Part shown: piece after piece, positions 29,753 through 48,924 of the stretch
How positions within the stretch are numbered: the first letter of the stretch is position 1
Layout of the letters: every line of letters starts with the position of its first letter
Assembly: GCA_044344255.1 (NCBI GenBank)
Contig: JBIJDH010000003.1
Span: 525,485-589,484 of the forward strand
Length of the DNA: 64,000 nt
Direction: 5' to 3'
Source: Myxococcota bacterium
GTDB lineage: Bacteria > Myxococcota_A > UBA796 > UBA2385
Position numbers and translations under genes: made by a program
The notes under the pieces: generated by a model
What the model was told of the DNA's origin: nothing
Seen by the model: the letters and a program-made list of their open reading frames with translations, nothing else
Database searches by the model: none

Positions 29753-29829
29753 GCGGGCCCCGCGTCCCGATCCGCTCCACGCCTGCGCTCGCAGGTGGGG
29801 CGGCTTATGCTGGCCGACAGGAGGTGTTG

Positions 29830-30888
29830 ATGCTCCAGAACCGCCCGCGGCTCTTGTCGGTGGGCACGGCGAACCCGCCGGAGCGTTACACGCAAGACGA
29901 GATCCTCGATCGCTTCCGTGCCGCGAATCCTGACGTTCGTGCATTGTTTCGGGCGAGTCACATCGCGCACCGCTACCTCTTTCTCCCGCCCGCCGACGCC
30001 GAGGGGCGCCCGGTGGAGAGCCAGAGCGAGCTGCTGGCTAAGCACCGGCGGGGCGCGCTCTACATGGCGAGCCGGGCGATCCCCGCCGCGCTGGAGCCGC
30101 TCGGCCTCCGGGCGTCGGACGTGGACTACCTCTGCGTCATCTCGTCGACGGGCTTCATGTTGCCCGGGCTCACGGCGATGTTCATCCGCCACCTCGGCTT
30201 CCGGGTGGACTGCCACCGCGCCGACATCGTGGGCATGGGCTGTAACGCCGGCTTGAACGGGCTCAACCCCGTGGCATCTTGGGCCAGCGCCAACCCCGGC
30301 CGGGTGGCGCTGATGGTGTGCTGTGAGGTCAACTCCGCGCTCTACGTCTACGACGACACCGTCGAGACCGGCGTGGTGAACAGCCTCTTCGGCGATGGCT
30401 GCGCGGCCGTGGTCGTGCGCGCCGACGCCGCAGACGAGGGCCGCTTCGCCCCCACGGTGCTCGGCTTTCAGTCGCACATCATCCCCGAGACGTGGGAGGC
30501 GATGAGCTACCACTGGCTGGAGGAGCACGGGAAGTTCGGCTTCCACCTCGATCGAGACGTGCCCTACGTGCTCGGCACCCACGCCGCTGTGCCGGTGGGG
30601 GCGCTGCTCGACCGCTTCGGCCTCAAGCGACGACACATCTCCCACTGGCTCGTACACTCGGGCGGGAAGAAGGTGATCGACGCCATCAAGTACACCGTGG
30701 GCATCACCGAGCATGACGTCCGCCACACCGCGGGCGTTCTGCACGACTACGGCAACCTCGGCTCCGGCAGCTTCTTGTTCAGCTTCAAGCGCCTCCTCGA
30801 AGAGGGGAAGGTGCGCCGCGGCGACCATGGGATCATGATGACCATGGGCCCCGGCTCTACGATCGAGACCGCGTTGATTCGCTGGTAG
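29830..30888 (+). CDS. dpgA: DpgA-like type III polyketide synthase (3,5-dihydroxyphenylacetyl-CoA synthase)
   Basis: Cys-His-Asn triad in RADIVGMGCNAGLNGL, WLVHSGGKKVI and YGNLGSGSFLFS; these segments are DpgA-type rather than chalcone-synthase-type. Confidence 0.85.
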   Translation: MLQNRPRLLSVGTANPPERYTQDEILDRFRAANPDVRALFRASHIAHRYLFLPPADAEGRPVESQSELLAKHRRGALYMASRAIPAALEPLGLRASDVDYLCVISSTGFMLPGLTAMFIRHLGFRVDCHRADIVGMGCNAGLNGLNPVASWASANPGRVALMVCCEVNSALYVYDDTVETGVVNSLFGDGCAAVVVRADAADEGRFAPTVLGFQSHIIPETWEAMSYHWLEEHGKFGFHLDRDVPYVLGTHAAVPVGALLDRFGLKRRHISHWLVHSGGKKVIDAIKYTVGITEHDVRHTAGVLHDYGNLGSGSFLFSFKRLLEEGKVRRGDHGIMMTMGPGSTIETALIRW

Positions 30889-34118: not shown

Positions 34119-35642
34119 CTACTCGCCCTTCTTCTTGTCGCCCTTCGAGCTTCCGCCGGCCTTGGCGGGGGTCGCGTCGACGAAGGCGTACCCGAGCCCC
34201 TTGAGCTCGCTGAACACGTCGACGTTGAGCTCGGTGCCGTTGGCGTCCTTTCCGGTCACGGTGCGCGGGCCCACCACGACGATGATCTGGTGCGCGGGAT
34301 CGAGCCACTTCTTCGCGGCGGCGTGGGCCTCCTCCGCGGTGACGGCGTTGACCTTGGCGCCCCAGGTCTGCCAGGTGTCGGTGGGCAGGCCATCGGCGAC
34401 GAGGCGGCTGAGCGAGCCGGCGGCGCGGGCGTTGGTCTCGAAGCCGCCGGGCAGCGACTTGACCATGCCGTCCTTGGTCACCTGCAGGAGCTCCGCCGAC
34501 GGCGGGTTGGCCATCGCGCGGGAGTAGACGCCGACGAACTCAGCCACGGCGGGGGCCGTCTTGTCGGCCTGGACGGAGGCGTAGGACTGGAACCAGCCGA
34601 GGTCCTTCGTGGCGTCGAAGCCTCCGTAGGCGCCGTAGCTCCAGCCCTTCTCCTCGCGGAGCACCATGTTGAGGGGGGAGGAGAAGTTCCCAGCGGCCAG
34701 CGTGCCCGCCATGTCCGCGGCGTACCAGCCGGCGTCCGTCTTCTGGAGGCCGGCGGCGCCCGTCAGGATGAAGGACTGCACGGAGCCCGGGCTCTCAACG
34801 AAGACGAGCTTCGTGGAGGGGACCGCGAGCGCCGCCGCCACCACGGGGGGCTTGTCCTTGCCGACCTTCCACTTGCCGAAGCGGGCGTCGAGCTCGCGCG
34901 TGAACGCGGCGGGATCGACCGCCCCGGTGACGACGAAGGAGGCGTTACCCGCGTGCCACCACTTCGTGTACCAGCCCTTCACGTCCGCCAGCTTGAGCTT
35001 CGGCAGCGTGGTGAGCGAGCCCCGGCGGGGGAGGCTGTAGGGGTGACCGTTGCCGTAGAGCTGGACGTCCATCGTCTCGCGGGCGATCGTGCGCGGGTCG
35101 CTGCGGTCGGCCTCGACGTCGGAGATGATCTCGGCTTGAACGCGCTTGAAGTCGGTCTCCTTGAAGGCGGGGTTGAGCGCGACCTCGGCGAGGAGGTCAA
35201 GGCTCGGACCCTCGGCGGCCCCGCCGAGCGCGTTGAGCGAGACGCCCACGCTGCGGGAAGACGCGGTGGTCGAGAGCTCCGCGCCAAGGCCCTGGGCTGC
35301 GGCGGCGAGGCCGAGCGTGTCGTACTTCTTGGTGCCCTCGTCGAGCAGGGCCCCCATGAGGTTGCCGATCCCCGCCTTCCCGGGCGCGCCGGTGGGCATC
35401 TCCACCGAGAGCTGCACCGTCACGAGCGGCAGGCCCGTGTTGGGCACGAAGTAGACGGGGATGCCGTTGCTCAGCTTGGTGGTCTGCACAGCGGGGGCGG
35501 TCCAGGCCTTCTCGGGGCCGGGGCCGGGCTGGGTGGCCCGCCAGGCCTCCGGATCGACGACCGGGGGCGGGGCCGCCGCCACTTCGGGGGCCTTCTTGGG
35601 GCCGCAGGCGAGCGCCAGGAGGAGGAGGAGGGGACGCTTCAC
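34119..35642 (-). CDS. M16 peptidase non-catalytic subunit, lipoprotein
   Basis: GTG start overlapping upstream stop; LALAC lipobox; LLDEGT, LREEKGWSYG; no HxxEH. Confidence 0.85.
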   Translation of the reverse strand: MKRPLLLLLALACGPKKAPEVAAAPPPVVDPEAWRATQPGPGPEKAWTAPAVQTTKLSNGIPVYFVPNTGLPLVTVQLSVEMPTGAPGKAGIGNLMGALLDEGTKKYDTLGLAAAAQGLGAELSTTASSRSVGVSLNALGGAAEGPSLDLLAEVALNPAFKETDFKRVQAEIISDVEADRSDPRTIARETMDVQLYGNGHPYSLPRRGSLTTLPKLKLADVKGWYTKWWHAGNASFVVTGAVDPAAFTRELDARFGKWKVGKDKPPVVAAALAVPSTKLVFVESPGSVQSFILTGAAGLQKTDAGWYAADMAGTLAAGNFSSPLNMVLREEKGWSYGAYGGFDATKDLGWFQSYASVQADKTAPAVAEFVGVYSRAMANPPSAELLQVTKDGMVKSLPGGFETNARAAGSLSRLVADGLPTDTWQTWGAKVNAVTAEEAHAAAKKWLDPAHQIIVVVGPRTVTGKDANGTELNVDVFSELKGLGYAFVDATPAKAGGSSKGDKKKGE

Positions 35643-37009
35643 TTGGCACCTCCGGCCACGGGCACGACCGTGACGATCACGCGGTTGTCGGCCCGGACGG
35701 TCTCGGCGTAGGTCTTCTGGATGGACTCCGGGGTGACGGCGTCGTAGCGGGCGAAGTCCTTCGGGAGGAAGCCCGCGTCCCCGGCGATCGTGTGGTAGTA
35801 GTTGAGCAGGTCGGCCTTTCCGCCGAAGCCGCCGATCTTCTCGAGGCCGCGAAGCGTGTCGGCCTGCCACTGGCGGCGGGCCCGCTCCACCTCGGCGGCC
35901 GTCGGTGCCTGCTTGGTGAGGGCTTCGATGACGGGCCAGGCGGCCTTCTCGAGGCTCTCGGGGGTCTGGCCCTTGTTGCCGGTGATGCCGATCTCGAGGA
36001 TGGAGCCTTGCACCTGGGAGTACCAGGCGACGCTGACCTCTTGGGCGATCGGCTTGTCGAGGACGAGCGCCTTCTCGAGGCGCCCCGTCTTCTCCAGGCC
36101 GAGGATGGTGGCTGCGAGCGCCATCTCGGCGTCGCCGGCCTGCATCGCGCGGGGCCCGATCCACGCGAAGTAGACCTTCGGGAGCTCGACCTCATCCTCC
36201 ACCGTGGCCCGCCGCTCGGCGGTGATCGGCTGGGTGGTGATGTTGAGGGGAGGGGGCTCGCCACCCTTCGGGATGGAGCCGAAGTACTTCTCGACGAGCG
36301 GCTTGAGCGTCGCCGGATCAAAGTCTCCGGCGATCACGAGGCTCGTATTGTTGGGCGTGTAGTACGACTTGAAGAAGCTCTTCACGTCGTCGAGGGAGGC
36401 GGCCTCGAGGTCGGCGTGCGAGCCGATCACGTAGCTGCCATAAGGGTGGCTGTTTGGGAAGAGGAGCTGGAACAGCTTCTCCTCACCGGGCACGTAGGGC
36501 ACGTTCTCGACCGACTGCTGGCGCTCCTTGCGGACCACCGCCTTCTGGTTGTCGAGCCGCTCCTGAGTGAGCGTGTCGAGCAGGAAGCCCATCCGGTCGC
36601 TCTCCAACCACAGGGCCAGCTCGAGCTGGTTGCTCGGCACGGTCTCGAAGTAGTTGGTGCGGTCGAAGTCGGTCGTGCCGTTCACATCGGCGACACCGGC
36701 GGCCTCGAGCTTGGGAAAGAACTGGTCTTCCGGCACGTTCCTCGAGCCCTGGAACATGATGTGCTCGAAGAGGTGGGCGAAGCCGGACTTTCCGGGCGTC
36801 TCGTAGCCGGCCCCCGTCTTGTACCAGAGGTCGACCGCCACGAGGGGCAGCCGGTGGTCTTCGGTCGCGATGACGGTGAGGCCGTTGGGCAAGGTCCAGG
36901 TCTCGAAGCGGAGCTCCGGCGGCGCGGACTTCGGGGCTTCGGCCTGGGCGACGGACAGGTTCGCCGCCAAGAGTGCTGGGATGAGAGAGACCATCGCGGG
37001 CAAGAGCAC
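35639..37009 (-). CDS. M16 zinc peptidase catalytic subunit (start approximate)
   Basis: GFAHLFEHIMFQGS, NGTTDFDRTNY, ESDRM. Confidence 0.92.
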   Translation of the reverse strand: MLLPAMVSLIPALLAANLSVAQAEAPKSAPPELRFETWTLPNGLTVIATEDHRLPLVAVDLWYKTGAGYETPGKSGFAHLFEHIMFQGSRNVPEDQFFPKLEAAGVADVNGTTDFDRTNYFETVPSNQLELALWLESDRMGFLLDTLTQERLDNQKAVVRKERQQSVENVPYVPGEEKLFQLLFPNSHPYGSYVIGSHADLEAASLDDVKSFFKSYYTPNNTSLVIAGDFDPATLKPLVEKYFGSIPKGGEPPPLNITTQPITAERRATVEDEVELPKVYFAWIGPRAMQAGDAEMALAATILGLEKTGRLEKALVLDKPIAQEVSVAWYSQVQGSILEIGITGNKGQTPESLEKAAWPVIEALTKQAPTAAEVERARRQWQADTLRGLEKIGGFGGKADLLNYYHTIAGDAGFLPKDFARYDAVTPESIQKTYAETVRADNRVIVTVVPVAGGAK

Positions 37010-37178
37010 CTCCGTGGGCCGGCCGGCTTAACGCCCTACGCGGTCCGGTGGAAGCAGGGGGTGTCCGCGGGACAGGAAAGGTTCACGATCGGGCGAAGCC
37101 GCTTCGGCGCTCCCGCCGAAGGCTCCGGGAACCGCTGGCGGGGAGCGATGTCAGGGAGTCGTGAACCCTGGAGGTCCC

Positions 37179-38832: not shown

Positions 38833-38980
38833 GGCGCCCCCGAAGGTCCGGAGGGTGAGTTCACACAGGGGCCTGTGAGCACGCCCCCGGTGAGGTCGTG
38901 GGGCGCTCGGAGGGAGGCGCCCTATCGGCGGCCGGGCCTAGGCATGTTTCGTGCTGTGCGCTTCGTCGACCGAGGTGTGC

Positions 38981-40336
38981 ATGAGCGATTGGAGCTTCAG
39001 GACGATCATCGAGCCCTTCCGCATCAAGGCGGTCGAGCCCATCCCGATCCTCGATCGGAAGACCCGCGCCGCGGCCCTTGAACGAGGGGGCTACAACCTG
39101 TTCAAGCTGCACGCCGATGAGGTCACCATCGACCTCCTCACCGACTCCGGCACCGGCGCGATGAGCGACGCCCAGTGGGCGGGCATGATGATGGGGGACG
39201 AGACCTACGCGGGCAGCCGCTCCTTCGCGCACTTCGAGGCGGTGCTCCAGCGGCTCACCGGTTTCCCGGTGATCTTCCCCGTGCACCAGGGGCGGGCCGC
39301 CGAGCGGATCTTGGCCACGACCCTGCTCGGGCCGGGCAAGGTCGTGCTCAACAACACCCACTTCGACACCACGCGAGCGAACATCGAGCATGCCGGCGCT
39401 GGCGCGGTCGACCTCCCGGTCGCCTCGGCCGCCGAGCCGGCGAACCCCGCCCCCTTCAAGGGGGACATGGACCTCGCCGCCCTCGACGCCGCCCTCCAGG
39501 AGCACGGCGACCGGGTGGCGATGGTCATGTTGACCATGACCAACAACGCCGCCGGAGGGCAGCCGGTGAGCATGGCCAACGTCGAGGCGGTGAGCGCGCG
39601 TTGCCGCCGGGCGGGGGTCCCCTTCTACATCGACGCCGCCCGGTTCGCGGAGAACGCCTGGTTCATCCGAGAGCGCGAGCCCGGCTACCGCGAATGGAAC
39701 CTCGCCGACATCGCCCGCCGCTTCTTCGATCTGGCGGACGGCTGCACGCTCTCGGCTAAGAAGGACGGCATCGCAAACATCGGCGGGGTGCTCGCCACCC
39801 GTCTGCCCGACCACGCCGATCGCTTCCGCAATGAGCTCATCGTCGGTGAGGGCTTCCCCACCTATGGCGGCCTCGCCGGGCGCGATCTCGAGGCCATCGC
39901 CATCGGCCTCGAGGAGGCCCTGAACGTCGACTATCTTCGCTACCGGGTGCGGACGGTGTCCTACCTCGCGCAGGGCCTTGAGGCGGTGGGGATCCCCGTC
40001 GTTCACCCCTCGGGAGGCCACGCCGTCTATGTCGACGCGGCCCGCCTCCTCCCGCACATCCCCGCCTCGCGCTTCCCCGGGCAGGCCCTGGCGACCGCGC
40101 TGTACCTCGAAGGCGGAGTCCGGAGCTGCGAGATCGGCAGCTTGATGTTCCCGGCGGCCCGCCTGCAGCTTGTCCGCCTCGCGCTGCCGCGCCGCACCTA
40201 TACGCAGGCCCACATCGACTATGTGATCGAGGTCGCGGAGCGGGTGGCCATGCACAAGGGCGAGCTGCAGGGCTACCGCATCGTGAAAGAGCCGCCCTTG
40301 CTCCGGCACTTCACGGCCGAGCTCGCCCCGATCTGA
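38981..40336 (+). CDS. tnaA: tryptophanase / tyrosine phenol-lyase family PLP lyase
   Basis: EPFRIKAVEPI, IDLLTDSGT, HQGRAAE, SAKKDG, EGFPTYGGLAGRD. Confidence 0.88.
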   Translation: MSDWSFRTIIEPFRIKAVEPIPILDRKTRAAALERGGYNLFKLHADEVTIDLLTDSGTGAMSDAQWAGMMMGDETYAGSRSFAHFEAVLQRLTGFPVIFPVHQGRAAERILATTLLGPGKVVLNNTHFDTTRANIEHAGAGAVDLPVASAAEPANPAPFKGDMDLAALDAALQEHGDRVAMVMLTMTNNAAGGQPVSMANVEAVSARCRRAGVPFYIDAARFAENAWFIREREPGYREWNLADIARRFFDLADGCTLSAKKDGIANIGGVLATRLPDHADRFRNELIVGEGFPTYGGLAGRDLEAIAIGLEEALNVDYLRYRVRTVSYLAQGLEAVGIPVVHPSGGHAVYVDAARLLPHIPASRFPGQALATALYLEGGVRSCEIGSLMFPAARLQLVRLALPRRTYTQAHIDYVIEVAERVAMHKGELQGYRIVKEPPLLRHFTAELAPI

Positions 40337-40339
40337 GCC

Positions 40340-41779
40340 TCAGCCCGGGAGGGTCACAGCGTCTGGGTTCGGCACGGCGAGGCGGGTGAGCTGCCGCTCC
40401 ATCCAAGGGGCGCGCAGGCGGTGGTAGACCGCGCCCACCATCCGCCGCGCGCTCTGGCGCCCGGGCCGCTGGACCAGCGCTCGCAGCGCCAGATCGGCTC
40501 GGCTTCCGGAGTGGGTCGAGCGCAGGAGCTCCTTTGCGGCGTCGTAGAAGGGCTGCGGGTAGGGCGCCGGGAAGAGCGTGCGGTTCTCCATCGAGGCCTC
40601 CCAGCTCGTCCCGAGGAGGTGGTCCCGAACCCGCTCGTAGAACACGGTGTTCGGCAAGGGGTAGCTGACGCTGACCCCGATCTCGTCCGGGCGGAGGGTT
40701 CGCACGAGGTCAATGGTGGACCGTACGTCGGCGAGGGTCTCGCCCGGGTAGCCGAGCTGGAGGAAGAAGCCGACGGCGACGCCGCGCCGGTGCAGGTTCT
40801 CGGTGGCTCGTCGGATCTCGGCCACGGTCCCGTCCTTGTCCATCCGCCGCAGCACGGTGTCTGCCCCGCTCTCGGCGCCGATCCAGACCCGGTCGCAGCC
40901 GGAGGCGGCGAGATCGTCGACCACCGCGGGGTCCTGGAGGAGGTCGGCCCGGGAGAGGCAGCGGTAGGGGAGGGGAGGGGCGCCAGCGGCCTCGATCGCT
41001 ACCCGGAAGGCGCGGAGCCAGGCGGGACGGAGGCCGAAGATGTCGTCGGTGAACCAGAGGCGATCGGGCTGATAACGGGCCCGCAAGAGCGAGATCTCGG
41101 CCGCCACGGCTTCGGCGGACCGGACGTGGTAGCTCCGTCCCCAGGTGGGCTTGGCGCACCAGTTGCAGCGGAAGGGGCAGCCGCGGGCCGTCCAGACGTT
41201 CATCTCCCAGTGCCCGTGGCGCGCCCTCCACCGTCGAGCGTACTGGGCGAGGTCCACCAGCTCCCAGGCCGGTAGGGGGAGGTTGTCGAGGTCGGTGATC
41301 ACCGGCCGCCGGCCGCCCGGGCCGCCCTCGCCGTGCAGGCCGAGGAGGTCGCGGCGGCCTTCGGCCCACTCGACGAGGGCGAGGGTGGGGTCTCCCACGA
41401 AGGCGGCGCTGGCACCGGCGGCGAGGTGCTCGGCGGGGCGGTCCGAGACGTCGGGCCCCGCGACGAAGACGGGGAGGCCGCGTCGACGGCAGGCCGCGGC
41501 CATCGCCTGCTGCGCCCGGCGGATTCGACCGAGGCACTGCTTGATCTGGACAGAGTGGTCGTCTGCGAGGATCGCGACCCGCTCTGGGCGTTCGCGGTCG
41601 AGCACCGACTCGAAGCCCCCCTCGTCGACCTCGAACATGGGGTCCCAAAAGCGCACCACGTGGCCGCGCGCTCGTAGAGCCGCCCCCGCCACGAGCGTGG
41701 AGAGGGGGCTATACGGCCGCCCGAGCGCCGCCTCCCGGGGATCCAGCGCCAGAACGTATGGGTGGGTGAGGAGGAGCAT
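40340..41779 (-). CDS. B12-binding radical SAM protein
   Basis: RGCPFRCNWC, FTDDIF, IGAESG, LGYPGET; N-terminal cobalamin-binding-like domain. Confidence 0.88.
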   Translation of the reverse strand: MLLLTHPYVLALDPREAALGRPYSPLSTLVAGAALRARGHVVRFWDPMFEVDEGGFESVLDRERPERVAILADDHSVQIKQCLGRIRRAQQAMAAACRRRGLPVFVAGPDVSDRPAEHLAAGASAAFVGDPTLALVEWAEGRRDLLGLHGEGGPGGRRPVITDLDNLPLPAWELVDLAQYARRWRARHGHWEMNVWTARGCPFRCNWCAKPTWGRSYHVRSAEAVAAEISLLRARYQPDRLWFTDDIFGLRPAWLRAFRVAIEAAGAPPLPYRCLSRADLLQDPAVVDDLAASGCDRVWIGAESGADTVLRRMDKDGTVAEIRRATENLHRRGVAVGFFLQLGYPGETLADVRSTIDLVRTLRPDEIGVSVSYPLPNTVFYERVRDHLLGTSWEASMENRTLFPAPYPQPFYDAAKELLRSTHSGSRADLALRALVQRPGRQSARRMVGAVYHRLRAPWMERQLTRLAVPNPDAVTLPG

Positions 41780-41830
41780 GGGCAACTCTACCCCAGCCAG
41801 ACCGCCGCGGCGGGGCGCCCGCGGTCGCGC

Positions 41831-43144
41831 TCAGGGGGTGAGCGTGCCCGCCCCGTTGATCGACCAGCGATGGTCGATCATGGTGTACTGATCGGCGTTG
41901 TCCGCGATGAGCCGGAGGTTCGGATCGGTCAAGGCGTCGACGCGGAGCTCGTACTCGGACAGGTCTCCGGCGCAGGCCCCTTGCGACATCACCACCACCT
42001 GCCAGGTGCCGCCCGTAGAGTCGAACTTCATCGACGGACAGTCGGCGCTGCCCGAATCATCCACCGGCCAGGTGCAGACGAAGCTGCTCCAGGCCTGGCC
42101 GACCGTGCAGCTCTCGCCGTCGTTGAGCCAGAAGGTGGGGTCAAAGGCGGTGGTGGGGTCGGAGGTGTCGATGGAGACCGCGACCGTCTCGCCGGCCACG
42201 GTGTCAATCTCCCACACGTCGAGGATCTCGCCGTCCGACCACCAGCCATAGGAGTAGGGCTCGGGGGGCACATCACCGCCGCCACCGCCGCCGTCATAGT
42301 ATCCGTAGCCGGTGTAGTAGGTGCCGCAGTCGAGGTCAGAGAGGTCCGCGAAGTCCCCGCCGTAGTTCGTCGTACCTTCGCGGAAGGCGCCGTAGACGGC
42401 CTCAGGGCGTCCGTCTGCGCCGTAGTCTTCATAGCCGTAGTAGCTTCCGCAATAGTCTCGGTAGTTCGCCTGGTAGTCAGACCACCCGTAGGACATGCTC
42501 CACGCGATCTGATCACCGTCCCGGGTGAAGGACGACTCCCAGGGGACCCCTCCGCCCGCGACGGGGATCCACACGGTCTCGGCCGGGGGCGGCGCCGCGG
42601 TGTCCGGCTCTCCGCCATCGTCGTAGCCGGGCTCGTCGTAGCCGTAGTAGCCGGTGAAGCCCACGATCAGGACGTCGGAGAAGGTCTCGCCGTACCAGGT
42701 GAGCTCGTTCGAGTGCCCGATGCGCAGGTCGCGGTAGGCGCCGCCCTCCTCGACCAGGGAGAGCAGGGGCGAGAGCCCACAGTCGGCGGGCGCGTCCCCC
42801 GACGCCACCACCCCGTCGGTGGAGAAGGCGAAGTCGCAGTCCGGGCAGACGCCGGTGTATTCGGCGCCAGAGACCGCGACGGTGCCCGCGCAGGACTCGA
42901 CGTCGTCTTCGGAGGAGGACCAAGTGATCGTCCCCTCGAAGGCGCCGAGGTCAGCGTCGGCGTCCGCGTCGCTGTCGGCGTCGGTGTCCGCGTCACTGTC
43001 GGCGTCGGCGTCTCCTTCCTGACGGCCGTCGTTGTCCGGTTCGGCCTTCGGATCACAGGCCGTGAGGCCGAGTGCGCCGAGGCTGAGGATCGAGAGTGCG
43101 GCCCACCACGAGCGGGGGAGGGGTGTGGCAGAGGTCGTGCGCAT
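41831..43144 (-). CDS. acidic lipoprotein with DADADSD linker and C-terminal PPC-like domain
   Basis: LTAC lipobox; DADADSDADTDADSDADAD; CPDC; FDPTFWL...GTWQVVV. Confidence 0.75.
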   Translation of the reverse strand: MRTTSATPLPRSWWAALSILSLGALGLTACDPKAEPDNDGRQEGDADADSDADTDADSDADADADLGAFEGTITWSSSEDDVESCAGTVAVSGAEYTGVCPDCDFAFSTDGVVASGDAPADCGLSPLLSLVEEGGAYRDLRIGHSNELTWYGETFSDVLIVGFTGYYGYDEPGYDDGGEPDTAAPPPAETVWIPVAGGGVPWESSFTRDGDQIAWSMSYGWSDYQANYRDYCGSYYGYEDYGADGRPEAVYGAFREGTTNYGGDFADLSDLDCGTYYTGYGYYDGGGGGGDVPPEPYSYGWWSDGEILDVWEIDTVAGETVAVSIDTSDPTTAFDPTFWLNDGESCTVGQAWSSFVCTWPVDDSGSADCPSMKFDSTGGTWQVVVMSQGACAGDLSEYELRVDALTDPNLRLIADNADQYTMIDHRWSINGAGTLTP

Positions 43145-43337
43145 GTCTTCTCCGGGCAAGGCGACCCGAAACCCCGCCCCGTCGGCACCTCGCTCAATCG
43201 GCCGTAGGCCCGGCGGAGGCGGCGTTCGAAGCAGGGCGGCGCGTCCGTGCGGCCCGTGCAGAAGGTAACCGAAAAGAGGGCGATCGGCGGGGGAGCGGTC
43301 GGACTTCTTCTGGAGGATGTGCGTGGACCGCCCAGGC

Positions 43338-45458
43338 TCAGACGCCGATCAGTCCGGCCTGGCGCACCTTCGCCCAGCGCCGCTCGAAGCGCCTCCACTC
43401 GCCGGGGAAGGTGGCCAGGGCGGCGTCGAAGGTCAGGTGCTCGGCAGCCTTTGGGCTGGCGGCGTCGAGCAGCTCGGAGAGCCACTCGCGCTCCTCCGGG
43501 CTCCCCGCGATCTCGACCTCCTCGTCGATCCCGTGCAACACGAGGCCCGCTGCCGACTCCAACACGGCGCCGCCGAGCCAGATGAGGCGCTCCCCCGGCT
43601 GGATGGGCACGGGCTTGCCGCTGACGGCCTGGCGGACACGGTCGCGCGGCTCACGGCTCCGCGGCACCTTTCCGGAGAACCAGGCGTCGACCGGCTTTTC
43701 GAGGTCTTGGCCGCGCTTCCAGGCCTCCAGAGCGGCCACGAGCGGCTCGTCGAAGCGGTCGTGATCGGCGCCCGTGGGGTCCTCGTGGGGGATGTCGTTG
43801 GAGGCGAAGGTGCCCTCGGGCACGGTGAAGCGCACCTTGTAGCGGGAGGGGTCGCGGAAGACCGCGGAGTGTCGGGTGAGCACGAAGCGGTGCCAGAAGG
43901 CGCTGTTCAGCAGCCCCTCCTCGAAGAGCTGACGCACCACCTCCATGCTCGAGAGGGTCTCCTCGGCGGTCTCGGTGGGGAAGCCGTACATGAGGTAGGC
44001 GTGGACGAGGACCCCGGCCTCGCGGAAGGCCCGGCAGGCGCGCGCGGCCTGCTCGACGGTGATGCCCTTCTCCATGAGGAGGAGCAGGCGGTCGCTCGCC
44101 ACCTCGAGCCCCCCGGTGACCGCGATGAGGCCGGCGGCGGCCAGGAGGCGGCAGAGATCGGGCGTGAAGGTTCGCTCGAAGCGGATGTTCCCCCAGAAGG
44201 AGACGGTGAGGTCGCGGCGGAGGAGCTCCAGGGCCAGCTCCCGAAGGAGCTTCGGCGGCGCCGCCTCATCGACGAGGTGGAAGCCGCTGCAGCCGGTCTC
44301 TTCGATGACCTGCTCCATCTGGTCGACCAAATCTGCGATGCGTGCAGGCTCGTATCGTGCGATATAGTCAAGGTTAATATCGCAGAATGCGCAACGTTTC
44401 CAGTAGCACCCGTGCGCCAGGGTCACCTTGTTCCAGCGCCCATCTGACCAGAGGCGGTGCGCGGGGTTCAGCGTGTCCAGCACGTTGATGTAGGTGTCGA
44501 GACGGAGGTCGGCGTACCAGGCGACCGAGGAGGCAGTGGCGGTGGCGGTGGCGGTGGCGGTGGCGGGCCGCGTGGGCGCCGTGTGGAGGCCAGACGCGCT
44601 GCGGGTGCGGAAGCGGTGGTCGGCGCCGCTGGCGAGCTGCTCGAGGATCGCGAGCAGCGGCCCCTCTCCGTCGTCGTAGGTGAGCGCGTCGATGTTCTCC
44701 CAGAGCCGGGGCTCCGAGACCGAGCGGAGCTCGGTGTTGACGTAGCCCCCGCCCATCACGACGGGCACTCCGGCCGCCTTGAGGCGGCGCCCGATCCGCA
44801 GGGCGCCGTACAGGGTGCCGGGGAAGGGCACCGAGAGGCCCACGAGGTCGGGGCGAGGTCCGTCCAGGAGGCTGTCCGCGAGCTCGTCGAGCCAGTCGTC
44901 GAGCAGGGTGTGGCCCTTGAGGCGCTCGTGCAGGGCGTCGAAGGAGACCGGCCCGACGCAGAGGTGGTGCTGGTAGGCCGCGAGGCTGAAGCCCTCGTCG
45001 AGGCAGCTCTGCACGAGATCGCAGAGGTCCTCGATGTAGAGGGAGGCGAGGTAACGGGCGGCGTCCTCCACCCCCATCGGGCCGAAGTCCTCCGTGCTGG
45101 CGGCGTCGAGGCGGGGCCCCGTCGGAAGGAAGGCCGTGTGGAGGATGCGGGTGGCGAGGGTGCGGTCCTTCCCTTGGAGGAAGCGGAGGACCGGGCCGAT
45201 GGTCGCCTCGTGACGCTCGCGCAGGGCGAAAGATCGCCAGGCGGGCTCCGGGAGCTCGTCGGCCTCGGCGCGCTGCTCGATCTGGTCGAAGATCTCGCGG
45301 AGGCCCTCACGGGAGAGGACCCGGCAGACGAGCTCGATGCCGAGGTCGCGCAGGTGCACGCTGTGGCCGGCGTCCCGGAGCGCACGCGCGAGGTAGCCGA
45401 TCGCCGGGTAGGGCGTGTTCAACTGCGTGAGCGGCGGGTTGACCAGCGTGACCCGCAT
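43338..45458 (-). CDS. B12-binding-type radical SAM protein (about 700 aa family)
   Basis: PPLTQLNTPYPA, HGCYWKRCAFCD, GGLEVASDRLL, HAYLMYGFPT. Confidence 0.9.
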   Translation of the reverse strand: MRVTLVNPPLTQLNTPYPAIGYLARALRDAGHSVHLRDLGIELVCRVLSREGLREIFDQIEQRAEADELPEPAWRSFALRERHEATIGPVLRFLQGKDRTLATRILHTAFLPTGPRLDAASTEDFGPMGVEDAARYLASLYIEDLCDLVQSCLDEGFSLAAYQHHLCVGPVSFDALHERLKGHTLLDDWLDELADSLLDGPRPDLVGLSVPFPGTLYGALRIGRRLKAAGVPVVMGGGYVNTELRSVSEPRLWENIDALTYDDGEGPLLAILEQLASGADHRFRTRSASGLHTAPTRPATATATATATASSVAWYADLRLDTYINVLDTLNPAHRLWSDGRWNKVTLAHGCYWKRCAFCDINLDYIARYEPARIADLVDQMEQVIEETGCSGFHLVDEAAPPKLLRELALELLRRDLTVSFWGNIRFERTFTPDLCRLLAAAGLIAVTGGLEVASDRLLLLMEKGITVEQAARACRAFREAGVLVHAYLMYGFPTETAEETLSSMEVVRQLFEEGLLNSAFWHRFVLTRHSAVFRDPSRYKVRFTVPEGTFASNDIPHEDPTGADHDRFDEPLVAALEAWKRGQDLEKPVDAWFSGKVPRSREPRDRVRQAVSGKPVPIQPGERLIWLGGAVLESAAGLVLHGIDEEVEIAGSPEEREWLSELLDAASPKAAEHLTFDAALATFPGEWRRFERRWAKVRQAGLIGV
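44536..44565 (+). repeat. (GTGGCG)5 in-frame microsatellite
   Basis: Five perfect hexamers encoding an Ala-Thr run just N-terminal of the radical SAM core. Confidence 0.9.
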
Positions 45459-45459
45459 G

Positions 45460-46308
45460 TCAGCCCTTCGCGGGGCGCATCGCGGCGAGGGCGGCCTTGA
45501 TGTCTTCCCGAGGCCAGTCCGTGAGCAGGCTGAACTCCTGCCCGCCCTTGAGCCACTCCCCGCCGTCGATGGTCACGATCTCCCCGGTCACGTAGGCGGC
45601 GCCGGGGGCCATCAGGTAGCAGGCGAGGTTGGCGAGCTCGGGCAGCTCGCCGAAGCGGCCGGCGGGGATGCGCTTCAAGGTGGTCTCCTCCATCCCCGAG
45701 GCCATCAGCCGGCTGAAGGCCCCTTCGGTGGGGAAGGGCCCAGGCGCGATGCCGTTGCAGCGGATCCCGTAGTGGGCCCACTCCACGGCGAGAGAGCGGG
45801 TCATGGCGAGCACGCCGGCCTTGGCCATCGCGCTCGGCAGCACGAAGCCGGAGCCCATCCAGGCGTAGGTGGTGAGGATGGAGAGCACCGACCCCTTCGT
45901 GCCGCGGGCGATCCACCGCCGCCCGAGCTCGGTGGTGCAGTGGAAGCTCCCGTACATCACGATCTGCACGACGGAGTTGAAGCCACCGGCGCTGAGGTCT
46001 TCGGAGGGGCAAAGAAAATTGCCGGCCGCGTTGTTCACGAGGCCCGTGATCGGCCCGAGCTCGGCCTCGAGGGCATCCACCGCGGCCGTGACCGAGGCCG
46101 GGACCTTCACGTCGAGCGGCGCCCAGGCGGCGGTGCCTCCGGCGGCGCGGATGGCCTCGACGGTCTCCTGAAGCGGCTCTGGGCGGCGACCGCCGACCGC
46201 GATCCTCGCGCCGAGCTCGGCCATACGCTCGGCCATCGCCCGGCCGAGTCCGGTGCCCCCGCCCGTGATGAGGATCGTCTGGCCAGCTAGCAGATCGGTC
46301 GAAAACAT
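45460..46308 (-). CDS. SDR, 2,4-dienoyl-CoA reductase-like
   Basis: ITGGGTGLG, NNAAGNF, SAMAKAGV, IAPGPFPT, IDGGEW. Confidence 0.9.
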   Translation of the reverse strand: MFSTDLLAGQTILITGGGTGLGRAMAERMAELGARIAVGGRRPEPLQETVEAIRAAGGTAAWAPLDVKVPASVTAAVDALEAELGPITGLVNNAAGNFLCPSEDLSAGGFNSVVQIVMYGSFHCTTELGRRWIARGTKGSVLSILTTYAWMGSGFVLPSAMAKAGVLAMTRSLAVEWAHYGIRCNGIAPGPFPTEGAFSRLMASGMEETTLKRIPAGRFGELPELANLACYLMAPGAAYVTGEIVTIDGGEWLKGGQEFSLLTDWPREDIKAALAAMRPAKG

Positions 46309-46432
46309 GGGCGCTCCGGAGGGCGAGGAGAGTCGGCGACGAATTTCTGGGGAGGCTCGTTAACCGACCGCGCTACGTTGACACCTCTGAGTGGATGGCG
46401 GGGCGCTGCGCCCGCACCGTGGGAGCATCGGC

Positions 46433-47032
46433 ATGAACTATGCGGCCCTCTACGAGCGGATCCTCCGCAAGGTGGACGATCAGTCCTACCTTCCCCTCGT
46501 GGACTCCGTGGCCGACGCCGCCCAGCGTCAGGCCCTGCAGCCCTTCCAGCAGATGATGCTCAGCCGCGACTTTGACGCCGCGCTCGTGCTGGAGATGCTC
46601 AGCGGGCTGGCCGCGGCGGGGCGAATCGATCGGGTGATCCACCTCTCTTGTCAGCACGCGGTCGCCACCAAGCAGCGCGACCACACGCTCGCCGCCCGTC
46701 TGGTCGGCGAGCAGGAGATGGCCGCCATCGAGCTCGGCGGTCCCAACCTACAGAGCAACCTCGCCAGCGTGGAGCGGCACCGTGGAGTGCTGGCCTTCCG
46801 TCTCGGCAGCTACGAGGTGGCCCTCGACTACTTCTCCCGCGCCTTCGAGCGGCAGCGCAGCGCGGGCAACCTCTCGAACGTGCTCGCGACGTTGATCCGC
46901 CTCGGGGACGAAGGCGAGGCCCGGGAGCTGCTCCAGCAGGTGCAGCGGTCCCTCCCGACTGCCCTCGTCACCGAGCTCAACCGATTGATCGCCCTCGATC
47001 CGGACCTCTCTCTCCTGCGTACGGAGCCTTAG
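46433..47032 (+). CDS. cytoplasmic TPR-like protein
   Basis: GGAG RBS; RGVLAFRLGSYEVALDYFSRAF and NVLATLIRLGDEGEARELL helical pairs. Confidence 0.75.
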   Translation: MNYAALYERILRKVDDQSYLPLVDSVADAAQRQALQPFQQMMLSRDFDAALVLEMLSGLAAAGRIDRVIHLSCQHAVATKQRDHTLAARLVGEQEMAAIELGGPNLQSNLASVERHRGVLAFRLGSYEVALDYFSRAFERQRSAGNLSNVLATLIRLGDEGEARELLQQVQRSLPTALVTELNRLIALDPDLSLLRTEP

Positions 47033-47034
47033 CC

Positions 47035-47268
47035 ATGAATTTCCTCGCCCTTTATTCGTGGCTCCTCCTCTCCCTCAGCCCGAGCTCCACCGCGCCCGTC
47101 GGCAGCGCCAGCGGGCATGCCGGCTGCGGCGCGCACGGCACCGCCGCGTACGCCCGGTGTGTGCGGGAGGGTGAAGAGGCGACCTCGGGCTCCACCAGCG
47201 GGGGGGGGGGCCAGGATGGGCGGGGCCAGTACTCGACCGATCCTCGCCCCATTTACGACGGGATCTGA
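47035..47268 (+). CDS. 77-aa putative exported peptide precursor
   Basis: GGAG RBS, ATG 2 nt after the upstream stop; MNFLALYSWLLLSLS hydrophobic N-terminus; two Cys; ends PRPIYDGI; fills the gap between its neighbours exactly. Confidence 0.7.
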   Translation: MNFLALYSWLLLSLSPSSTAPVGSASGHAGCGAHGTAAYARCVREGEEATSGSTSGGGGQDGRGQYSTDPRPIYDGI

Positions 47269-47271
47269 GCC

Positions 47272-47931
47272 ATGCGGTTGAACGACCGGGATGAGCTCTC
47301 CCTCCTGTTACGCGCGCTGCTCGCCGATCGGACGGCGCCCGAGACCCGGGCCCTCTGCCTCAGCCTCGCGCCCTCGATCCACCAACGGATCGCCAGTCAC
47401 ATCCAGCACCGGTACCCCGACCTGCTCGCCGCCCCCGACGAGGAGGAGCTGGTCGAAGAGGTGCTGATGGAGCTCCTCACCAACGGGCTGCGCAATTTCC
47501 GGGGGGGCACGGTGCCCGAGCTCGTGGCCTACGTCCGTCGGATCGCGGACTGCGCGGTCTGGAAGCGCGCCACCCGTCGCCGTCGCGAGCGAGACGCCCT
47601 GGCCGGCGAGGTGGGCGAGATCGTGAGGAGCTGGTCTTCGGCGGCGCCCGAGGTGGAGGAGAGCCTCCGCCATCTGCCGGCATGTCCGCTCAGCTCGACC
47701 GATGAGGCCTACCTCCTCGAGCTGCTCCGGGCCGGGAGCCGCGCCGACTTCGCCCGTCGCCAGGGTGTGAGTCGCGCCGCGGTGACGCAGCGGGTCCAGC
47801 GAATCCGGGACCGGATCGAGGCCCTCTCGCCGCTCGACCGCGCCTCGGCGGAGGCCTGGCTCCTCCACGCCGCCGACGTCGCGATTCGTCAGCGTGCCGA
47901 ACAGACCCCGATCGACGCCCGGGCCCGCTGA
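47272..47931 (+). CDS. ECF-like sigma factor
   Basis: Region 2-like EELVEEVLMELL..NFRG..AYVRRIA; region 4 HTH SRADFARRQGVSRAAVTQRVQRIRDRI. Confidence 0.7.
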   Translation: MRLNDRDELSLLLRALLADRTAPETRALCLSLAPSIHQRIASHIQHRYPDLLAAPDEEELVEEVLMELLTNGLRNFRGGTVPELVAYVRRIADCAVWKRATRRRRERDALAGEVGEIVRSWSSAAPEVEESLRHLPACPLSSTDEAYLLELLRAGSRADFARRQGVSRAAVTQRVQRIRDRIEALSPLDRASAEAWLLHAADVAIRQRAEQTPIDARAR

Positions 47932-47934
47932 TGG

Positions 47935-48924
47935 TCAGAGGGCGAAGCGCGCGCCCACATGCCCGCCGAAGCTTCGATCGAGGCCGGCGTTGAGCTGTCC
48001 ATATAGGCGGAGGTAGGCGAGGTTGATCTGCAGGCCGCCGAAGAAGCGGGGGGTGAAGAGGTCGCCCTGGCCGACGCTGGAGATCGAGGCGGTGGCTGAG
48101 CCGATCTTCTGCGTCTCTCCGTCAGCCCGGACCGTGATGTCGCCGGTGAGGGCGATGTCGCTGACCGCGTTGCCCTGAGGGGTGATGTCGACGGCCGCCC
48201 CCAAAAAGGGCGACAAGATCCGGAGCTGCATCCCCGTCGAGAGCTCGACCGGGATGCTGTTGGACGTGGCGGTGATCTCGTAGGTTCCGTCGGCGTCCCA
48301 GGTGATCTTCCCCGACTCCACGGGAACCGACTCGGCGAGCCCCACGCGGTAGCGGGCGTGCTCAAAGCCGGTGGTGAGGTTGAAGCCACCCCACGCGGTC
48401 TTCTTCTGGGAGGTGGGCCCGCCGAGGTTGAATTGCATGTGGGCGCCCAGGTTGAGCAGGTCGCCGGTGAAGGGGGCGTGGTTGGCCTGCGAGGCCATCC
48501 CGTTCACGTAGAGCCGGAAGTGCCGTGCGGGGCTGCCGTCCTTTGCGCCAACGCCGAAATTAATTCCGGCCATCGCCGCCAACTGAAAGGCAAAGCCGCC
48601 GTTTGGGAGGTAGTTGTCTCCCCAGCCGAGGCGCACCCCGTTCGAGTTCACCGCGCTGCCAAACGCGACCCCCGCGACGAAGCGCTGCGGGTTGCTGGCA
48701 TAGTCCACCCCCATCCCCTTGGTCGACATCGTGGTGGCGTTCGCCATCTTCACGAGGAAGTCTTGCTGATCGTCGAGGGAGAGCTGCTCGTTCATCGCCC
48801 CGCGCATTTGATCATCGTAGGTGTCGGCGTTCACGCCGGCGGCGGCAGAGAGCGTGGGGTCCAGGTTCACCGAGATCTGCTGGGCCAGCGCGGCGTCGGT
48901 GAGGGCAAGGAGGAGAAGGACCAT
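47935..48924 (-). CDS. outer-membrane/surface beta-barrel-like protein (Lsa36-like)
   Basis: Signal peptide; MANATTMSTKGMGVDYAS; alternating beta strands; ends GARFAL. Confidence 0.6.
   Translation of the reverse strand: MVLLLLALTDAALAQQISVNLDPTLSAAAGVNADTYDDQMRGAMNEQLSLDDQQDFLVKMANATTMSTKGMGVDYASNPQRFVAGVAFGSAVNSNGVRLGWGDNYLPNGGFAFQLAAMAGINFGVGAKDGSPARHFRLYVNGMASQANHAPFTGDLLNLGAHMQFNLGGPTSQKKTAWGGFNLTTGFEHARYRVGLAESVPVESGKITWDADGTYEITATSNSIPVELSTGMQLRILSPFLGAAVDITPQGNAVSDIALTGDITVRADGETQKIGSATASISSVGQGDLFTPRFFGGLQINLAYLRLYGQLNAGLDRSFGGHVGARFAL

Follow-up and report, generated by a model that had tools for sequence, protein, structure and literature searches.

Intracellular peptide quorum sensing is known from Bacillota and from their mobile elements (PMC10075063, in part; here and below, "in part" marks sources cited from excerpts). 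In the RRNPP systems (Rap-Phr, PlcR-PapR, NprR-NprX, AimR-AimP, and Rgg-SHP), a soluble tetratricopeptide repeat (TPR) protein is encoded directly before a small open reading frame (ORF) that has a hydrophobic start and a short conserved C-terminal core. Here we analyze a three-gene cassette that shares these features and encodes a TPR protein, a small ORF, and a divergent sigma factor of the extracytoplasmic function (ECF) type. The cassette was found in a 64,000-nt stretch of a Myxococcota genome (GenBank assembly GCA_044344255.1, contig JBIJDH010000003.1, positions 525,485–589,484; hereafter, the window). The module is real and conserved, and comparison of related sequences lends strong support to the TPR protein reading the peptide and to the predicted promoter of the sigma factor. 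The best explanation, to which we give an even chance of being correct, appears to be an autoinducing, RRNPP-like pentapeptide circuit that acts through the ECF-type sigma factor. It is supported by the co-conservation of the genes, their coupling, selection on the tail of the small ORF at the protein level, co-change of the tail and the TPR protein, and a promoter motif that follows the sigma gene across genomes. Three of the four predictions of an initial annotation of this DNA, made from the sequence alone, were borne out.

The cassette conforms to the propeptide length (10–100 aa), the presence of TPRs in the receptor, and the adjacency of the two genes that are given for RRNPP systems in PMC10075063 (in part), but not to the receptor length of 250–500 aa (199 aa here, and about 192–240 aa among the top homologs). 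RRNPP propeptides are exported via Sec or PptAB; in the small ORF, the N-terminus is hydrophobic and Cys pairs occur, but the n-region carries no charge. As in PlcR, where residue 278 tracks the PapR variants (PMC2441798, in part), a single receptor residue follows the peptide variants, and the intragenic duplication of the core that is known in RRNPP propeptides (PMC10075063, in part) has a counterpart in one distant small ORF (genome G158). Unlike RRNPP receptors, the TPR protein contains no DNA-binding domain, the output being a co-transcribed sigma factor; furthermore, the host belongs to a diderm Myxococcota lineage rather than to Bacillota, and the peptides change slowly. The fold matches of the TPR protein model include NprR and PlcR (TMq 0.61; Z 12.2), which do not rank above generic TPR proteins, and no sequence homology with RRNPP proteins was detected in PDB, Pfam, or NCBIfam.

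Among sigma factors, a TPR domain and an ECF sigma are also combined in ECF42, where activity requires the C-terminal TPR extension and binding of this extension to an unknown partner is predicted (PMC8999054 and PMC7826278, both in part). In contrast to ECF42, the TPR protein is here the product of a separate upstream gene (with an N-terminal fusion seen once), a candidate ligand is encoded between the two genes, the sigma factor is undetected by the Pfam sigma models, and a C-terminal TPR fusion is not seen (the sigma is 219 aa long; the homolog search covered proteins of 120–384 aa). The sigma2+sigma4 fold and the envelope-type predicted targets are shared with the sigmaE-RseA, soluble ZAS, and NepR-PhyR pairs, and the predicted autoregulated bipartite promoter, with AAC at −35, with ECF sigma systems; unlike the ECF/anti-sigma pairs, the operon encodes no membrane anti-sigma, ZAS domain, kinase, or response regulator. 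The excerpts of two ECF surveys (PMC7826278, PMC8999054) name no peptide-gated TPR regulator. We found no published description of this cassette in a search that covered few subscription papers and not the ECF-group supplement of PMC7826278, in line with the remark in the initial annotation that no described system of this layout was known to its author, and the excerpt of a Myxococcota preprint (10.64898/2026.07.10.737566) mentions neither quorum sensing nor sigma factors. The module is apparently undescribed.

Composition, distribution, and conservation of the cassette

The three co-oriented ORFs with tight junctions (TAG-CC-ATG between the TPR gene and the small ORF, TGA-GCC-ATG between the small ORF and the sigma gene) and opposite-strand flanks were all recovered as annotated initially (Table 1). 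The 199-aa protein matches Pfam TPR_2 and TPR_12 at E~1e-5, below the curated cut-offs, and its AlphaFold2 (AF2) model is an all-helical TPR solenoid (predicted local distance difference test score, pLDDT, 89). A signal peptide and a helix-turn-helix were looked for in this protein and neither was found, so that its annotation as a soluble TPR-like protein lacking a helix-turn-helix stands. The 219-aa protein gives weak NCBIfam sigma matches only (best 8.5e-5) and no match to the Pfam sigma models. Nevertheless, its description as a divergent sigma2/sigma4 protein is upheld by the structural models: the N-terminal domain fits region 2 of Escherichia coli sigmaE (Z 10.7, root mean square deviation 2.5, 90 residues aligned) and is followed by a helix-turn-helix at about residues 147–182. 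A Foldseek search with the full-length model retrieved mostly ECF sigmas, none at E ≤0.001, and the protein language-model neighbors are sigma70 clusters. As modeled, the protein has the ECF-type architecture, that is, sigma2 and sigma4 only, with a short linker.

The TPR gene is present in 41 of 61 related genomes and the sigma gene in 43, including all 41 TPR-bearing ones, as the predicted co-conservation of the two genes would have it; 18 genomes have neither. In G012, which has the sigma gene but no TPR call, the peptide and sigma genes lie at a contig end. In a sample of 401 genomes of the phylum, 44 match the TPR profile, 37 of these in the order of the window, and a wider profile added no genomes (44/401 each time). 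A search of viral contigs for relatives of the cassette found none, and a locus search among genome contigs in which the sigma factor was the single query protein gave no match. We identified 142 distinct TPR-family genes, 15 of them too near a contig end for assessment. In 110 of the remaining 127, the next ORF is a small one ending in the five-residue tail (109 identified by script and one by eye). Another 5 precede a longer ORF that carries the motif internally, 10 are second paralogs behind the sigma gene, one is split from its operon, and one is followed by a 12-codon remnant of the small ORF.

Statistics on the small ORF were collected from 81 complete cassettes with TPR identity below 90% (93 distinct cassettes minus 4 with the internal motif and 8 redundant ones). 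The TPR gene and the small ORF overlap in ATGA in 54 cassettes, all gaps falling within −14 to +30 nt, and the sigma gene starts within 10 nt of the small-ORF stop in 80; judging from these distances, the small ORF is translationally coupled on both sides. The small ORF is 48–88 aa long (median 63) and variable except for the hydrophobic N-terminus and exactly five C-terminal residues, the entropy dropping from 3.24 bits at position −6 to 0.38, 1.41, 0.56, 0.17, and 1.28 bits at positions −5 to −1, respectively. Thus, the small ORF with conserved C-terminal residues that had been postulated is present, with conservation setting in sharply at −5. Two tails, ISNGF (35 cassettes) and IYNGF (17), found across several families, account for 52 of the 81 cassettes; the total number of tail variants is 15. 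The tail Ser is encoded by both Ser codon families (TCG 20, AGC 19, and TCC 8), and because the codons vary synonymously, the tail is selected at the peptide level. This synonymous variation rules out a DNA-level explanation of the conserved tail.

The product of the small ORF is likely exported, to judge from its sequence. Exactly two Cys residues are found in 49 of the 81 small ORFs compared to about 20 expected from the Poisson distribution, and three in none, suggesting that the small protein resides in an oxidizing compartment. The segment after the hydrophobic helix is acidic in 78 of the 81, and distant homologs carry canonical Sec or lipoprotein signals. The hydrophobic N-terminus noted in the initial annotation stands, whereas a textbook signal peptide is not seen (see below).

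Co-change of the tail and the TPR protein

The residue at position −4 of the tail is tracked by residue 145 of the TPR protein. In the 81 cassettes, S at −4 goes with E145 (47/47) and Y with G145 (28/28); the rarer pairs are F-G (1), N-M (2), Q-I (1), and I-P/A (2). In the FastTree tree, 4 of the 5 changes at the two positions coincide. Residue 145 scores 0.67 against 0.27 for the next best among 401 TPR and sigma columns, and the probability of this co-change by chance, estimated by branch-length simulation, is 2.5e-6 per column or about 1e-3 over all columns. Among 28 further related cassettes, which are kin of the first set and not independent of it, 26 could be read and yielded S-E (7/7), Y-G (16/16), one F-G, and one I-A. 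The −3 position shows a similar pattern, as one event: N occurs with Q94 (72/72) and V with K or R at 94 (8/8), and the change from N to V also goes with the TPR change from V119 to A (8/8).

No column of the sigma factor stands out against tail position −4 or −5, and the peptide as a direct sigma ligand is accordingly disfavored. The residue-level co-change points to the TPR protein as the peptide reader proposed in the initial annotation, and we consider it very likely that this protein binds the pentapeptide tail. The tail-tracking positions of the TPR protein are 145, 119, 94, and 38; in the AF2 model, residues 35/38, 76, 119, and 145 sit on successive first helices of the repeats, and it is the first helices that line the groove of TPR proteins. 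S72, H75, R115, H116, N146, and N149 are invariant or nearly so. In family f8, where the motif of the small ORF is internal, S72, H75, R115, and N146 are all replaced (4/4), as expected if these residues clamp a free C-terminus. Prediction of a complex of the TPR protein, the sigma factor, and the last 32 residues of the small ORF gave a median of 0.51 compared to 0.00, 0.52, and 0.68 for the controls, one of which still retained the TPR protein and the peptide; this outcome counts neither for nor against binding.

A link between the TPR protein and the sigma factor is indicated by their near-strict co-occurrence and by one natural fusion, a 327-aa protein (P0356) in which the TPR family (E 2.2e-8) is joined N-terminally to the same sigma2 domain (E 3.8e-5). 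The TPR protein probably acts on the sigma factor directly, and the invariant residues R9, Y19, D189, and D191, which lie away from its groove positions, are candidate sigma contacts. Another protein, P0283, consists of a TPR-family domain and a C-terminal domain of about 90 aa that has no Pfam match and is reminiscent of effector-associated domains.

Promoter and predicted regulon

Upstream of the cassette, we detected a motif consisting of a T-tract, GTTAAC, a spacer of 17–18 nt, and CAC. The seed pattern was present in 74 of 80 upstream regions, the spacer was 17 or 18 nt after refinement of the motif, and the same motif precedes the family f8 cassettes. In the genome of the window, the operon promoter is the top match of the matrix (24.7, in-sample), and it alone exceeded shuffles in the scan with the matrix including the T-tract; the scan with the core matrix, for which there is no direct false-positive estimate, returned 313 sites, 25 of them non-coding with a gene behind. 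The sigma factor appears to autoregulate the operon via this predicted bipartite promoter. Two more matches to the promoter pattern lie in the window at 761 (+) and 19397 (−).

In the relatives, exact motif sites recurred upstream of orthologous genes. Three such genes were analyzed for matches scoring at least 11 within 330 nt upstream, using a matrix built from cassette promoters only: those for an M16 peptidase that is exported (scored in 53 of the 58 genomes with a match), a putative outer-membrane barrel (45 of 51), and a small exported protein (30 of 48, with 2 left out because their flanks were short). In TPR-positive genomes, the motif was found in 23/36 (M16), 12/21 (small exported protein), and 13/29 (barrel) cases, compared to 1/17, 0/9, and 1/16 in TPR-negative genomes and 1/53, 1/30, and 0/45 (2/128 in total) in the reverse-strand control. 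Both TPR-negative exceptions come from G012, which carries the sigma gene. When recounted by the presence of sigma, the matches are 24/37, 12/22, and 14/30 (50/89) with the sigma gene and 0/16, 0/8, and 0/15 (0/39) without it, the sigma-negative genomes spanning five families. There is, on this comparative evidence, a strong likelihood that the sigma factor reads the GTTAAC-N17/18-CAC motif.

Among 14 recurring target clusters, 11 encode exported or envelope proteins (as classified by reading); the recurring targets include M16 peptidases, secreted PepF, TonB, TonB-dependent receptors, MurJ, lipoproteins, and barrels. In family f3 (L361, L362, L365, and L371), the gene behind the promoter motif encodes an oligopeptidase F (M3) that carries a signal peptide. 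Usually, PepF is found in the cytoplasm, and in Bacillus it degrades Phr peptides; the secreted PepF of family f3 may damp the signal.

The proposed circuit and the alternatives

In the circuit that we favor, the small protein would be exported and trimmed to the C-terminal pentapeptide, which would re-enter the cell through an Opp/Dpp-type transporter and bind in the groove of the soluble TPR protein. The TPR-bound peptide would turn on the ECF-type sigma factor, either by releasing it from the TPR protein as an anti-sigma or by making the TPR protein a co-activator, and the sigma factor would transcribe its own operon along with envelope and peptidase genes, closing an autoinduction loop. 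Export with release and re-import is slightly favored, and the genome holds three Opp/Dpp-like ABC clusters; the positive sign of control, by anti-sigma release or co-activation, seems reasonably probable. The most plausible role would be to sense density or diffusion and in this way gate the scavenging of extracellular peptides. The full reading, an independently evolved diderm quorum-sensing system with a re-imported pentapeptide, a minimal TPR receptor, an autoinducing ECF sigma, and group peptide scavenging, spanning a whole order of uncultured myxobacteria, is tentative, with chances somewhat below even. If correct, it would give RRNPP signaling an equivalent among Gram-negative bacteria and add a new way of controlling sigma factors. 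That myxobacteria digest protein in a density-dependent manner is a long-standing idea, for which signaling between cells would provide a molecular handle.

Several observations weigh against this circuit. With regard to export, 78 of the 81 small ORFs have no K or R among the first 6 residues, and AxA is found in only 8 (73 lack it). This objection is softened by the lack of early K/R in 80 of 180 crude Sec-type signal peptides encoded in all contigs of the same genome, possibly a lineage trait, and by small(−3,−1) sites in 63 of the 81 small ORFs. No cleavage consensus precedes the pentapeptide, position −6 being R or K in 33 of 81, so that the tail may act uncut, and the diversity of the tails is low for a population signal. 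With regard to the tail code, one of the further cassettes pairs tail N with G145 instead of M; an aliphatic residue at −1 goes with a changed 35/38/76 pocket in 15/18 cassettes versus 1/63, with the pocket defined post hoc, and on independent pairs this correlation is not significant (sign test, median p 0.125). The TPR-sigma2 fusion is a single protein seen without genomic context; G047 (L418) contains an orphan sigma of the same family with no adjoining TPR or peptide gene; and in G046, the peptide gene stays by the sigma gene whereas the TPR gene has moved elsewhere. This split system obeys the code (G145, with IYNGF on another contig), and the promoter is kept by the peptide and sigma genes but not by the relocated TPR gene, a single case that fits a loop in which ligand and sigma are amplified while the TPR protein sets a constant threshold. 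As for the regulon, the three genes tested had been chosen because sites recurred in some positive genomes, related genomes are not independent, and by a crude test, exported proteins are not enriched behind exact motif sites (14/43 versus 2110/6206, or 34%; 2/13 in negatives); given the lack of enrichment over unselected sites, the envelope character of the regulon is suggestive only.

Many of these observations would be accommodated by a cell-autonomous monitor of export, in which the tail binds the TPR protein only as long as the precursor stays in the cytoplasm. Its removal by efficient export would throw the switch between the TPR protein and the sigma factor and so adjust the expression of envelope genes to the capacity for export, with no peptide returning from outside. 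This mechanism accounts for the same co-change of the tail and the TPR protein, explains the slow evolution of the tail and the missing cleavage consensus as well as the autoinducing circuit does, and further accounts for the low tail diversity, the weak signal peptide, and the envelope character of the recurring targets. The secretion-coupled switches IpgC-MxiE, SicA-InvF, ExsE-ExsC-ExsD-ExsA, and FlgM-sigma28 combine an exported small partner with a TPR protein or chaperone by which a transcription factor is controlled, and ExsE/ExsC, FlgM, and the chaperones IpgC and SicA, acting with MxiE and InvF, are analogous to such a monitor. IpgC and SicA are TPR proteins (PMC13466201, in part). All these systems rely on type III export and on motifs at the N-terminus or inside the protein, whereas the cassette combines a Sec-like signal with a C-terminal pentapeptide. 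The tandem cores and lipoprotein signal of the G158 small ORF and the canonical signals in family f8 better suit a processed product, and no Sec, YidC, or Bam gene was found among the predicted targets examined; we consider export monitoring unlikely, although it is the main rival. The missing n-region charge and the rarity of AxA would also fit an uncleaved N-out anchor whose cytoplasmic tail holds the TPR protein and the sigma factor until intramembrane proteolysis, in keeping with the membrane anti-sigmas of canonical ECF control (PMC8999054, in part). However, the acidic segment after the helix contradicts the positive-inside rule for such a tether, and the Cys pairing together with the cleavable or lipoprotein signals of distant homologs places the tail outside, making this topology very unlikely.

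Control of sigma translation in cis by a ribosome-arrest peptide of the SecM/MifM type would agree with the hydrophobic N-terminus and C-terminal motif of the small ORF, at least 32 residues apart, and with the peptide gene staying by the sigma gene in G046. Contact with the ribosome leaves the co-change of the tail and the TPR protein unexplained, and in distant homologs the motif lies inside the ORF or occurs twice. In arrest-peptide systems, a hairpin hides the downstream start site; here, the sigma start is close to the small-ORF stop, as noted above, and no excess RNA structure was detected at this junction (mean z −0.25 versus −0.30 in the control). Moreover, the gene downstream is a sigma gene and not a protein-localization gene as in SecM, MifM, VemP, and Apd, and the monitoring substrates described in the excerpted sources regulate Sec or YidC genes; arrest is the least probable of the alternatives. 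A signal by which kin or strains recognize each other through peptide-receptor pairs of their own, kin recognition having been envisaged in the initial annotation, would resemble the PlcR/PapR pherotypes (PMC2441798, in part), given the 15 tail variants with matching TPR changes. Nevertheless, the variants mark deep clades rather than close strains, the S/Y switch is a single change in the tree, and one and the same tail occurs in different families; because tail diversity is low, with two tails prevailing across several families, this proposal is disfavored and scarcely probable. Whereas the autoinducing circuit, if real, would be a peptide-controlled switch previously undescribed for bacteria with an outer membrane, export monitoring would be a new secretion-to-sigma coupling. 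Either way, the cassette supplies a receptor, a ligand, an output, a promoter, and a residue-level specificity code, all testable in E. coli by means of three short genes and synthetic five-mers, and could be developed into compact switches that are orthogonal and respond to peptides.

Variants of the cassette and genomic neighborhood

A second TPR paralog without its own peptide follows the sigma gene in L057–L060, L103–L105, L109, L119, L126, L131, L133, L144, L157, and L162. The four such paralogs that were aligned keep N146, N149, and R115, with H75 replaced by G or Q; a decoy, a co-activator, or a second receptor are possible roles. In family f8 (L061, L062, L065, and L078), the sigma2 domain is duplicated in the sigma factor, and the small ORF combines a canonical signal peptide with an internal II[FL]GQ[DE]R motif. 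The small ORF of L064 (G158, from another class) encodes a predicted lipoprotein in which a beta-rich stretch occurs together with a related core repeated twice in tandem. The metagenomic locus L148, with a 12-codon small ORF lacking a signal, a degenerate promoter, and a diverged TPR N-terminus, can be read as a decaying or signal-less version of the cassette.

Table 1 Features of the cassette and its surroundings (coordinates in the window)
Feature	Position	Strand	Remarks
TPR protein gene, 199 aa	46433–47032	+	putative pentapeptide receptor, soluble
Small ORF, 77 aa, ends PRPIYDGI	47035–47268	+	hydrophobic N-terminus, Cys pair, variable linker, conserved tail; putative propeptide
C-terminal pentapeptide IYDGI	47251–47265	+	family pattern [ILF]-x-[NVD]-[GE]-[FILVY]; putative ligand
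Divergent ECF-type sigma factor gene, 219 aa	47272–47931	+	sigma2, sigma4, and extra C-terminal helix; invariant W196
Predicted ECF-type operon promoter	46359–46384	+	−35 GTTAAC 46359–46364, 17-nt spacer, −10 CAC 46382–46384, short T-tract upstream
Second promoter-motif copy, GTGAAC-N17-CAC	37061–37086	-	upstream of exported M16-peptidase gene; predicted regulon member
Exported M16-family peptidase gene, predicted target	35639–37009	-	clusters by blastp with Pfam-M16 protein of L192
Flanking SDR gene	45460–46308	-	
Flanking Lsa36-like gene	47935–48924	-	

In one freshwater metatranscriptome, the cassette is represented by two short identical contigs at low depth, possibly DNA carry-over. Elsewhere in the window, two B12-binding radical SAM-type genes, one of them confirmed by Pfam, surround a gene for an acidic-repeat putative lipoprotein (40340–45458, minus strand). 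A type III polyketide synthase-like gene (29824–30888) and a tryptophanase/tyrosine phenol-lyase-like gene (38951–40336), both on the plus strand, were recognized by eye from their translations.

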